Positions 14,680 to 24,100 of a DNA stretch of 64,000 nt are shown here, in pieces. The DNA is taken from NCBI GenBank assembly GCA_964016885.1, contig OZ024743.1, positions 300,018,001 to 300,082,000 on the forward strand, given 5' to 3'. Position 1 is the first letter of the stretch, and each line of letters opens with the position of its first letter. Under the pieces are notes generated by a model. It saw only the letters and a program-made list of their open reading frames with translations, was not told the origin of the DNA and made no database searches. This DNA is from Eledone cirrhosa (lineage: Eukaryota). A program made the position numbers and the translations under genes.

Positions 14680-14833
14680 TTCATTATTTAACGATCGTTT
14701 CTAGGATATATATGTGTTAGAGTTGGCATGCATATTCAACAGATCTATGTACAAAATTATACAAAATTATACAAACTATCAAGATTAAATATACATACCA
14801 ACACATATATACGCCGTCTTCAGAAATAATGAA
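14680..14833 (-). ncRNA. Type I hammerhead ribozyme, long stem II (copy 1)
   Basis: Minus strand: TTCATTATTT-CTGAAGA-(~115 nt with TATATATGTGTT/AACACATATATA and GTTGGTATGTATATTTAA/TTGAATATGCATGCCAAC pairing)-GAAAC-GATC-GTT-AAATAATGAA; 10-bp stem I, palindrome AACGATCGTT. Confidence 0.85.
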
Positions 14834-15469
14834 ATATATTTATTGATAATAACAACAATCCAAACTTTCAGGTCCGTTTGGGAACAAAATTGACCAATGA
14901 AAATACAAAAGGTTTAATGCAGTTCGGTGTGTGTATATACATGTAACAACCCTTACACATATTTTACAAAAATGTATGCACAACCTGTATACGCATACAA
15001 AAAGGATGGATGCAAATACAAAATTTCAAGGTTAATGTCTCTGTAAGTTTATAATGCACAGATAAGATGCGTATAGATACATAAATATGAAATAAGTGTA
15101 TACACATATGTTCATACTAACACATATCCGTACAATCACACATACACGCGCGTATATGCATAAACATACACATAAACTACGAACATACAAACACACACAC
15201 ACCCCCACTCACATATATATATGTGGATATAAAATCCTAAGCACATGGATATTAATTCACTCACATAAACACTGGCACACACATTTAGATAAAGATACAG
15301 AAATTAGGTGGGAGGGGGGGGGATAGGTCAGTATTCAACGGTTTGGGCTGACTGCTTAATATAGATGTATCTATAAACTAAGAAAATAAAAAATAATAAA
15401 TAATAAATAAACATTGAAAAGGAAAGAAAAGAAAAAGAAAAAAGAAAAAAGAAAAAAGAAATATATCAA

Positions 15470-17480
15470 GAAAATATATATATATATATATATATATATA
15501 TATATATATATATATACATATATATATATATATATATATATATATATATATATATATATATATATACATACACACACACACACACATATATATACATACA
15601 CATATACAAACACATACATACATATACACACATCCACACTTAGAACATACATACACACACATATATAAACATATACATATACACACATACATACATATAC
15701 ACACATACATATAAATACACATATATATATACATATATATATATATATATATATATATATATATATATACATACACTCATACATACACATATAATCACAC
15801 ATACTATATAGACACACATATATATACACACATACACACACATATACATACACTTACATACATATATACATACAGATATACACATACATACCTATATATA
15901 CACACAAATACATACAGACATATATACATACATACAGACAAATACTTACGCATCTATATATCGGTATATACATACAAACACCACTACACTCTCACACAAC
16001 TCAGACATACAAAGAAAAAGGTATATACCCATACACATATACATATACAAATAGAGAAACATATATATATATATATATATATATACACATATATATACAT
16101 ATATATATATATATATATATATATATATATACATATACACACATACACACATACACATACATACACATACATACATGTACACACACATAGATATATATAC
16201 ACACACATACACACATACACATACATATATAGTCATACACACACATACACCTACACGAACATACACATACACATATACAAAGATATATATACACACACAC
16301 ACACACATACACACACACACATATATATAAAAAAAATAAAGATATATATATATATATATATATATATATATATACATATATATATATATATATATATACA
16401 CATACACATACATACACACATACATAGACATATATGTACCAACATACATATACATATATACATACACACACATACATACATATATATATACACACATAGA
16501 CATATACATACATACACACACAACATACATACACACATATATACTCATACATAGAATTAGATATATAATCATACATACATACGCACTTACATATACTCAT
16601 ATATACAAATACAAACGCATCCATATATGCGTATATACATAGAAACACCACTACACCCTCACCCAACTCAGACATACAAAGAAAAAGGCATATACATATA
16701 CATATATACACGCATTAATAGAGATATATATACACATATATATATATATATATATATATATATATACACACATACACTTATATACATATACCCACACACA
16801 CATACAACCATAAATACACATACAAACACCCACATATATATATATATACACATATATATATATATACACACACATAAAAAGCAGACATGCACATATATAT
16901 ATTTTTTTACACATATATATACACATATATATACATATACACACCCTCACATATACACATACACATAAGTTATATTATAATAATAAATAATATATATATA
17001 TATACACATACATATATATATATATATACATATATATACATATATATATACATACACACATACGAATATAGACATATATACACACATAGATATATATACA
17101 TATATATATACACATACATATACACACACACACATATATCCACATAGATACGAAGATAGACATATAAATAGAGAGACATACATATATATACACACACACA
17201 TATACATACATACATACACACACATATACATATATATACATATATATATATATATATATATATATATATATATATACACATACAGACATACACATACACA
17301 TACATATACACATGCATATATACACATATACACATACATACACACATATATATATATATACACACACAATCATACATTCTTATTTGCATGCGCATATATG
17401 TATTTTTATATTCAGATATAAATACCCAAATATATATACACCTACCTACATATATATTCATACATACACGCTTACAAACA
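15470..17480. repeat. Complex TA/CA/TACA microsatellite block internal to the PLE 3' UTR
   Basis: Same order of unique islands (e.g. CATCCACACTTAGAAC, CACAACTCAGACATACAAAGAAAAAGG, CCACATAGATACGAAGATAGAC) in all three copies (also ~22185-24285 and ~28405-30405). Confidence 0.9.
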
Positions 17481-21044: not shown

Positions 21045-21196
21045 TGTGATATGGATGATGGACAATTGAAAGAGCTCAACTAAATGTATATGGGTTTATA
21101 AAATCATACATATATATGTATATACATAAATATAAAATTAATACACACATACAGTACAAAAATACGAATATTTCCGTGAAAATAGGAGCAAAATTA

Positions 21197-24100
21197 TGTA
21201 GATAAATCTACCAAGAGTTTACGGTAGTGTCCAATCCGTATGAAGAACTCAATGTATTCCGGATATCATGGAAAGAAGAGATGTAATGAAAAATCACTTT
21301 CGGTGAAAGATAAACGGTATACAGAGTCAAGATAAAATATTAAACAAATAATGAATAAACAATTCCTTATATTAAACAAAAAAAGTTCATTATTTAACGA
21401 TCGTTTCTAGGATATATATGTGTTAGAGTTGGCATGCATATTCAACAGATCTATGTACAAAATTATACAAAATTATACAAACTATCAAGATTAAATATAC
21501 ATACCAACACATATATACGCCGTCTTCAGAAATAATGAAATATATTTATTGATAATAACAACAATTCAAACTTTCAGGTCCGTTTGGGAATAAAATTGAC
21601 CAATGAAAATACAAAAGGTTTAATGCAGTTCGGTGTGTGTATATACATGTAACAACCCTTACACATATTTTACAAAAATGTATGCACAACCTGTATACGC
21701 ATACAAAAAGGATGGATGCAAATACAAAATTTCAAGGTTAATGTCTCTGTAAGTTTATAATGCACAGATAAGATGCGTATAGATACATAAATATGAAATA
21801 AGTGTATACACATATTTTCATACTAACACATATCCGTACAATCACACATACACGCGCGTATATGCATAAACATACACATAAACTACGAACATACAAACAC
21901 ACACACACCCCCACTCACATATATATATGTGGATATAAAATCCTAAGCACATGGATATTAATTCACTCACATAAACACTGGCACACACATTTAGATAAAG
22001 ATACAGAAATTAGGTGGGAGGGGGGGGATAGGTCAGTATTCAACGGTTTGGGCTGACTGCTTAATATAGATGTATCTATAAACTAAGAAAATAAAAAATA
22101 ATAAATAATAAATAAACATTAAAAAGGAAAGAAAAGAAAAAGAAAAAAGAAAAAAGAAAAAAGAAATATATCAAGAAAAAAAAAATATATATATATATAT
22201 ATATATATATATATATATACATATATATATATATATATATATATATATATATATATATATATATGTATATACATACACACACACACACACATATATATAC
22301 ATACACATATACAAACACATACATACATATACACACATCCACACTTAGAACATACATACACACACATATATAAACATATACATATACACACATACATACA
22401 TATACACACATACATATAAATACACATATATATATACATATATATATATATATATATATATATATATATATATATATATATACATACACTCATACATACA
22501 CATATAATCACACATACTATATAGACACACATATATATACACACATACACACACATATACATACACTTACATACATATATACATACAGATATACACATAC
22601 ATACCTATATATACACACAAATACATACAGACATATATACATACATACAGACAAATACTTACGCATCTATATATCGGTATATACATTCAAACACCACTAC
22701 ACTCTCACACAACTCAGGCATACAAAGAAAAAGGTATATACCCATACACATATACATATACAAATAGAGAAACATATATATATATATATATATATATATA
22801 TACACATATATATACATATATATATATATATATATATATATATATATATATATATACATATACACACATACACACATACACATACATACACATACATACA
22901 TGTACACACACATAGATATATATACACACACATACACACATACACATACATAAATAGTCATACACACACATACACCTACACGAACATACACATACACATA
23001 TACAAAGATATATATACACACACACACACACATACACACACACACATATATATAAAAAAAATAAAGATATATATATATATATATATATATATATACATAT
23101 ATATATATATATATATACACATACACATACATACACACATAGACATATATGTACATACATACATATACATAGATACATACACACACATACATACATATAT
23201 ACACACATAGACATATACATACATACACACACAACATACATACACACATATATACTCATACATAGAATTAGATATATAATCATACATACATACGCACTTA
23301 CATATACTCATATATACAAATACAAACGCATCCATATATGCGTATATACATAGAAACACCACTACACCCTCACCCAACTCAGACATACAAAGAAAAAGGC
23401 ATATACATATACATATATACACGCATTAATAGAGATATATATACACATATATATATATATATATATATATATATATATATATACACACATACACTTATAT
23501 ACATATACCCACACACACATACAACCATAAATACACATACAAACACCCACATATATATATATATACACACACATAAAAAGCAGACATGCACATATATATA
23601 TTTTTTTACACATATATATACACATATATATACATATACACACCCTCACATATACACATACACATAAGTTATATTATAATAATAAATAATATATATATAT
23701 ATACACATACATATATATATATATATACATATATATACATATATATATACATACACACATACGAATATAGACATATATACACACATAGATATATATACAT
23801 ATATATATACACATACATATACACACACACACATATACACATTCACATATATATGTGTGTGCACACACACATATATATACATACACACATATACACATAA
23901 ACACATATATGTGTATACATGCACACACACACATATATCCACATAGATACGAAGATAGACATATAAATAGAGAGACATACATATATATACACACACACAT
24001 ATACATACATACATACACACACATATACATATATATACATATATATATATATATATATATATATATATATATATATATATATATACACATACAGACATAC

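Follow-up and report, generated by a model that had tools for sequence, protein, structure and literature searches.

The DNA analysed here is a stretch of 64,000 nucleotides (nt) from Eledone cirrhosa (assembly GCA_964016885.1, contig OZ024743.1, positions 300,018,001 to 300,082,000 of the forward strand), hereafter the window. It contains an insertion with two arms of a young Penelope-like retroelement (PLE) of the Hydra clade, each terminal repeat (pseudo-long terminal repeat, pseudo-LTR) of which carries a long-armed hammerhead ribozyme motif. The locus reads, in order, (TA)n, unit A, truncated unit B, inverted truncated unit C and (TA)n. Signed positions are counted from the predicted cleavage nucleotide, 0 being the last U of the GUU triplet (21396 or 14690, minus strand). 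The features of the insertion, including its open reading frame (ORF), are as follows (window positions; bp, base pairs).

14489-21194, minus strand: unit A, full length; its 3' end lies ~200 nt past the cut and is joined to (TA)n at 14462-14491.
21195-26565, minus strand: unit B, the upstream tandem copy, 5'-truncated within the ORF.
26564-31254, plus strand: unit C, the inverted arm, 5'-truncated; its 3' end lies 64 nt past the cut and is joined to (TA)n.
21386-21539, minus strand: type I hammerhead of the upstream pseudo-LTR; cleavage predicted between 21396 and 21395.
14680-14833, minus strand: identical hammerhead of the downstream pseudo-LTR; cleavage predicted between 14690 and 14689.
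31047-31200, plus strand: third identical hammerhead, in the inverted arm.
21408-21522, minus strand: stem II domain, 115 nt, with a C.A mismatch at its base, two stacked helices of ~14 and ~15 bp and a variable tip.
18603-21044, minus strand: ORF for a Hydra-type reverse transcriptase with a C-terminal GIY-YIG-like domain, 813 amino acids in intact relatives; TAA at 20622-20624.
14834-18602, minus strand: AT-rich 3' region of 3768 nt between ORF and hammerhead, containing a TA/TG microsatellite (15474-17360).
21536 (same site at 14830), minus strand: putative RNA start and preferred 5' end of stub copies genome-wide, at position -140, 7 nt before the hammerhead core.
21298-21308 (repeated at 21171-21181), minus strand: 11-nt hairpin core downstream of the +64 and +200 ends, a candidate start signal.

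The initial annotation of this DNA placed two hammerheads on either side of the whole ORF. They do bracket it (ATG at 21044 to stop at 18603), but this copy is broken by the in-frame TAA at 20622-20624, which is absent from all 60 other sampled copies, and the third, inverted hammerhead had been overlooked. The unit is more than twice as long as published Hydra elements because of the 3768-nt 3' region. The 11-nt hairpin core stands ~24-28 nt downstream of the +64 end site and ~14-18 nt downstream of the +200 site, and is a candidate start signal for the reverse transcriptase. A start hairpin of the form RCTC...GAGY was considered and rejected: RCTC follows both 3' ends, yet by eye no GAGY partner is seen. 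There is a donor-like GT in stem II (21504, minus strand) and an AG ~35 nt before the ATG (~21080, minus strand); splicing of a possible 425-nt intron between them would delete the cut site and both start sites, and leave a single upstream ATG.

The minus-strand hammerheads are letter-identical over 154 nt, with GUU triplets ending at 21396 and 14690 and predicted cuts 6706 nt apart, in agreement with the initial annotation. This identity reflects recent tandem insertion rather than selection. The description of the fold given there also holds: stem II comprises ~115 nt, its outer helix is formed by TA/TG pairing, and stem III (2 bp and a tetraloop) lies within a 10-nt palindrome. Stem I has 10 bp and the core is the canonical CUGAAGA...GAAA. 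Of the features of a type I hammerhead, the CUGAnGA / GAAA core, the A15.1-U16.1 pair, an NUH triplet and three stems with stem I open are present. The triplet is GUU in this family and GUA in older relatives. Where stem II begins, the C.A mismatch followed by G.U takes the place of the canonical G10.1-C11.1 pair. The motif folds far better than shuffled sequences (z = -7.1; none of 200 shuffles equally good). In the monomer, stem III is predicted to be weak (pair probability 0.06), and the folding model places an explicit double hammerhead ~15 kcal/mol below two monomers with the same stems. The Infernal search that had been suggested as a check does not recover the motif: no hammerhead family occurs among 150 of the 152 Rfam matches at E<=1, as expected because stem II is so long. 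Hammerheads of this kind, with a long stem II, escape descriptor and Rfam searches. Four contig sets aligned to the junction carry no information on copy ends or circles; a contig from another organism (run X6) skips 85 nt within stem II (window 21422-21506), as if the hairpin had been jumped.

The family was assigned from its protein. The 813-amino-acid ORF has RWR at 37-39, SDKT at 114, YRDD at 346 and VY...YIG at 692-709; a CxCx5C linker, CxxC and CxH are present, and CX2-5CxxC and GxK[FY] are absent. The marks of the Hydra clade listed in section 11 of PMC8557442 are RWK/R, DKT, CxCx5C, CxxC, CxH, a C-terminal endonuclease and a (TA)n target. Here the RWK motif (as RWR) is present, GxKF/Y is absent and DKG is changed to DKT; the single ORF encodes the reverse transcriptase followed by the C-terminal GIY-YIG endonuclease, and insertion into (TA)n is seen at the 3' junctions. 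The size generally described for the clade (<3 kb) differs: units span 6054-7196 nt, and the excess lies in the 3' region, not in the protein. Protein blocks resemble the Hydra alignment in the supplement of PMC8557442 in a comparison made by eye, with named Hydra proteins compared as text. A search of Pfam with the ORF gave no useful match, and the best of its homologues (119 among 7996 scored candidates) gave only a weak GIY-YIG match. On its motifs, the element is almost certainly a Hydra-clade PLE with a conserved hammerhead. Assignment to Naiad/Chlamys (N-terminal endonuclease, DKA, no canonical hammerhead) was rejected on domain order and motifs, and the element is not a non-LTR retrozyme (non-coding, 170-400 nt), since its unit is coding and 6-7 kb long.

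The family is young and large. In the genome of ~3.0 Gb there are 6047 exact matches to the 27-mer preceding the cut, corresponding to ~6000 hammerhead copies, and 306 ORF-linked junctions; the 813-amino-acid ORF is intact in 38 of 60 sampled copies. The longest arrays have up to four hammerheads. The 6706-nt unit described initially is the spacing at this locus and not a constant of the family, 14 tandem pairs being spaced 6054-7196 nt apart.

Conservation of the motif was analysed in 330 aligned copy segments. The minor-allele frequency is 0.003 in the core and stem III, 0.016 in the stems and 0.034 outside. All eight recurrent stem changes keep the pair, and 96.6 per cent of cells are paired in 28 variants (21 picked from 53 full-length variants, and seven diverged relatives) with identity down to 76 per cent. 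No bias suggestive of RNA editing was found in the stems, where A>G is not enriched relative to the outside (p = 0.50); outside the motif there is a mild excess of A>G over T>C (p = 0.002). Conservation of the catalytic core is better evidence for a maintained ribozyme than stem covariation. The pattern points to selection on the ribozyme, whose self-cleavage is predicted.

The ends of the copies bear on the nature of the template. They were mapped in a positional sample, consisting of the first 100 of 1666 matches to the post-cut pattern with their surroundings (101 copies). Their 3' ends occur only at about +64 or +200, or the copy runs on into the next ORF, and none begins at +1. Genome-wide, 7 nt beyond the cut are retained in 5960 of 6047 copies (98.6%). 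Copies facing each other head to head combine an end at +200 with one at +64 in 32 of 36 pairs, and two of the four exceptions read +201/+64. The lengths of the two arms usually agree: 20 pairs are short-short, 12 long-long and four mixed, against ~17 mixed pairs expected by a hand estimate if the arms were independent.

The 5' ends differ between the first and the second passage over the hammerhead. Two positional samples provided 119 terminal copies. Seventeen of them end between -129 and +18. The other 102 extend to -130 or further, and 38 of these end at -145 to -130, most often at -140 (17 copies). The ORF-linked sample has 113 copies (90 from 100 of the 306 junctions and 23 further ones), of which 89 reach -130 on the second pass, and none of these stops at -145 to -130. 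The contrast is strong (Fisher ~1e-12), the units of one array not being independent. The 61 stubs represent 32 haplotypes and 35 of them share theirs with long copies, which does not support an origin from a few master copies. The -140 site reads TTC-A-TT, which we take to be initiator-like. At the cut itself, 10 of 22 truncations fall at +1, and a control window is flat with ~5 per position; these per-position counts rest on 30 of 156 (cut) and 30 of 118 (control) matches only. Ends at 0 to +7 in four of the 113 ORF-linked copies were noticed after the fact.

The simplest reading of these ends is that there are two RNA populations: linear, uncut RNA from -140, which gives stubs, and an endless template without the -140 end, which gives long copies. 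An ORF-linked transcript from -140 would carry two hammerheads; were it copied as a linear molecule, full-length copies should end at -140. None does, which a circle explains. Since 98.6 per cent of copies cross the cut, a linear cut-to-cut RNA is not the ordinary template. The initial annotation had called its monomer possibly circular, and the copy ends favour this part of the proposal for the long insertions. That the long tandem copies were reverse-transcribed from a circular unit RNA, cut by the ribozyme and re-ligated, rather than from the linear cut monomer, is in our judgement the best explanation, at about even odds.

The cycle could run as follows. The RNA would start at -140. Both strands of the (TA)n target are extended, from ~200 and 64 nt downstream of the cut, and the arms joined head to head; this pattern is seen in the DNA, and from it we infer the mechanism. 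Transcripts of terminal repeats and stubs, with a single hammerhead, would mostly stay uncut and be copied to -140, yielding thousands of stubs. RNAs with two hammerheads would be cut at both, probably aided by pairing of the stem III palindromes or by the element's protein. The cut RNA would then be ligated into a 6-7 kb circle, and copying around it would give more-than-unit arrays lacking the -140 end. Double cleavage followed by circularization would thereby account for the occasional ends at +1 and for arrays of up to four hammerheads. A requirement for pairing of the two ribozymes in cis, as the initial annotation supposed, fits the uncut stubs, and we regard it as possible though on balance doubtful; dimers could also form between two RNAs. 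Equally tentative, and rather more apt to fail than to stand, is the complete proposal that a retrotransposon which is autonomous and related to telomerase uses a ribozyme-made RNA circle of 6-7 kb to replicate, that its hammerhead remains uncut alone and cuts only with a second one on the same transcript, and that the ends of thousands of copies record this rolling-circle step.

Units of one insertion derive from one source, as a circle requires, and the rival explanations predict the same. The median ORF divergence is 0.05 per cent within and 1.7 per cent between insertions, and 59 private variants are common to all units of an insertion. In one insertion (L097, L098; G000:C1:147780794-147793775) both arms have, inside the 3' microsatellite, the same nested stub copy and were therefore copied from the same variant source. 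Another pair (L111, L112; G000:C1:203386717-203397401) consists of overlapping copies of different subfamilies with 48 differences at shared polymorphic sites, and is probably one copy inserted into another.

Several observations weigh against replication through a circle. At the present locus, three derived alleles are common to units A and C and absent in B, and one is common to A and B and absent in C; three other arrays have one such subset-shared site each. A single circle does not predict these alleles; they would be expected from a multimeric template, from gene conversion or from an error of assembly. The excess of ends at the cut is small (156 matches vs 118 in the control window, by extrapolation <1% of copies), and three of the ten +1 cases look by eye like microhomology joins through stem I. 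A cap-derived G at -140 is not significant (7/17 vs 10/48, p = 0.12), a larger tally with seven loci picked for such junctions being disregarded, so that -140 is no more than a putative RNA start. Changes on both sides of a stem pair occur in two of 41 pairs, no more than in shuffles (150/500), and the low variation of the core is partly biased, since some loci were chosen by core patterns. Finally, hammerhead cleavage was not needed for the insertion of an anole PLE in vitro, and RNA-seq revealed no ends at the cut site of that element (PMC11167929). To these must be added that intramolecular strand transfer would mimic a circle, yielding concordant arms and shared private variants as well.

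This last point leads to the explanation that survives best beside the circle, in which no cleavage is needed. The template would be uncut linear RNA, through read-through of an array or a repeat-to-repeat jump of the cDNA as in retroviral strand transfer; stubs would come from RNAs without a second repeat, and the hammerhead would act elsewhere. The anole PLE's main substrate in vitro was unprocessed RNA (PMC11167929), and the alleles shared by subsets of units A, B and C are compatible with a multimer whose units are unequal. Transfer would, however, have to work in all 89 second passes, when 38 of 102 first passes stop, read-through alone would seem unable to regenerate four-hammerhead arrays, and the conserved catalytic core and the +1 peak need separate explanations. 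We consider this explanation somewhat unlikely.

Alternatively, -140 may be a pause or block met by the reverse transcriptase on its first pass and not an RNA end; the ribozyme would then serve mRNA processing or limit expression, and the ends would be uninformative on circles. The non-significant cap signature and the generally dense truncations in the first 340 nt copied are compatible with this. So is the possible intron in the leader, whose removal would eliminate almost every upstream ATG together with the cut site; no spliced copy was found among the 11 copies that break at the stem II donor, all of which have point changes or small deletions. The stop is also sharp, lies beyond structure already passed, and occurs where the neighbour is plain flank. 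A pause is therefore improbable. Least probable is the linear 6706-nt cut-to-cut monomer, proposed initially as the template: two cuts do delimit one unit and a few copies begin at +1, but copies read across the cut and end 64 or ~200 nt beyond it, which contradicts a linear monomer unless the enzyme always jumps the nick.

The feature is thus real and of a known kind, in an unusual variant. Hammerheads in PLE repeats, their cleavage as dimers and RNA circles were known already, as findings or proposals (PMC4209133, PMC6765202). The element resembles the Hydra clade of Craig et al. (2021, PMC8557442), including Hydra-1_Obim, in its motifs, its C-terminal endonuclease without CCHH and its (TA)n targeting, and likewise in the type I hammerhead near the 3' end, the palindromic stem III, the tandem and inverted insertions and the one-sided tail. 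It differs from the elements in the supplement of that paper, which have at most 3045 bp and, in File S2, stem II helices of 3-7 bp, by its 6.1-7.2 kb and its 115-nt stem II; it also has a 3.8-kb 3' region, and a tail of ~137 nt rather than 30-40 bp. Its hammerhead differs from the one given there for Hydra-1_Obim, and several Hydra hammerheads in File S2 have U.U where the C.A mismatch stands here.

As in the PLEs described by Cervera and de la Pena (2014, PMC4209133), hammerheads with palindromic stem III occur in both flanking repeats. That paper reports dimer activity and proposes ligation to circles for more-than-unit copying of PLEs, so that self-processing to a circle is a model already put forward in 2014. 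There, helix II has 6-8 bp and the circle is presented tentatively, without in vivo evidence; the copy ends described here constitute indirect, countable support. According to a review (PMC6765202), the start site of PLEs lies in the upstream repeat. The PAc Poseidon element of Anolis (Frangieh et al. 2024, PMC11167929) similarly extends both target strands, from two internal start sites to which the genomic tail corresponds, with the hammerhead adjoining. It belongs to a different clade, and its start sites lie inside the ORF, whereas here they are in the 5' leader. According to the same work, the anole PLE hammerhead needed its protein to cleave, and in vitro the element could do without cleavage.

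Metazoan non-LTR retrozymes (PMC7229834; preprint 10.64898/2026.07.22.740005) also consist of tandem units, each with a type I hammerhead, and for them circles have been demonstrated. In the axolotl, HHR_Amex2 likewise combines a 2-bp stem III with a mismatch where stem II begins; a 2-bp stem III with a tetraloop gave weak cleavage (22 per cent) as a monomer and better cleavage as a dimer in this species (PMC7229834). Retrozymes are non-coding and 170-400 nt long, whereas the present element is autonomous and ~20 times longer. The function of PLE hammerheads and the origin of PLE tandem arrays are stated as open in PMC8557442 and PMC4209133. Titles and openings of abstracts of the papers found by searching mention no circular intermediate for an autonomous PLE and no stem II of this length, although subscription papers and supplements may hold such cases.

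The family is young, with ~300 ORF-linked junctions and most sampled ORFs intact. The predictions are sharp: the RNA should start at -140, the ligation junction should lie at GUU, and reverse transcription should begin at +64 and +200. A coding circle of 6-7 kb, if real, would greatly exceed the known retrozyme circles in size.

Other related sequences were seen in the window and at the sampled loci. An older relative of the long-armed hammerhead, 76 per cent identical, lies at 5974-6113 (minus strand), with the first core base altered and a GUA triplet; at 7010-7250 there is a fragment of the 3' end of the ORF from a related element (~81% identical). At ~70-161 (plus strand) there is a motif resembling a type I hammerhead but unrelated to this one, whose stem III is palindromic and whose stem II is of medium length. 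Several hammerheads of ~55 nt with short stem II occur in the flanks of loci L041, L056, L013, L088 and L109, and 80-nt hammerheads in those of L080, all belonging to other PLE-type families. Small palindromic fold-back elements at 38319-38434, 38553-38698, 12488-12585, 56734-56816 and 51749-52009, several of which adjoin (TA)n, are possibly stubs of other families. Another two-armed insertion, with inverted arms of 468 nt around a 335-nt tandem duplication, is found at 33532-35746.

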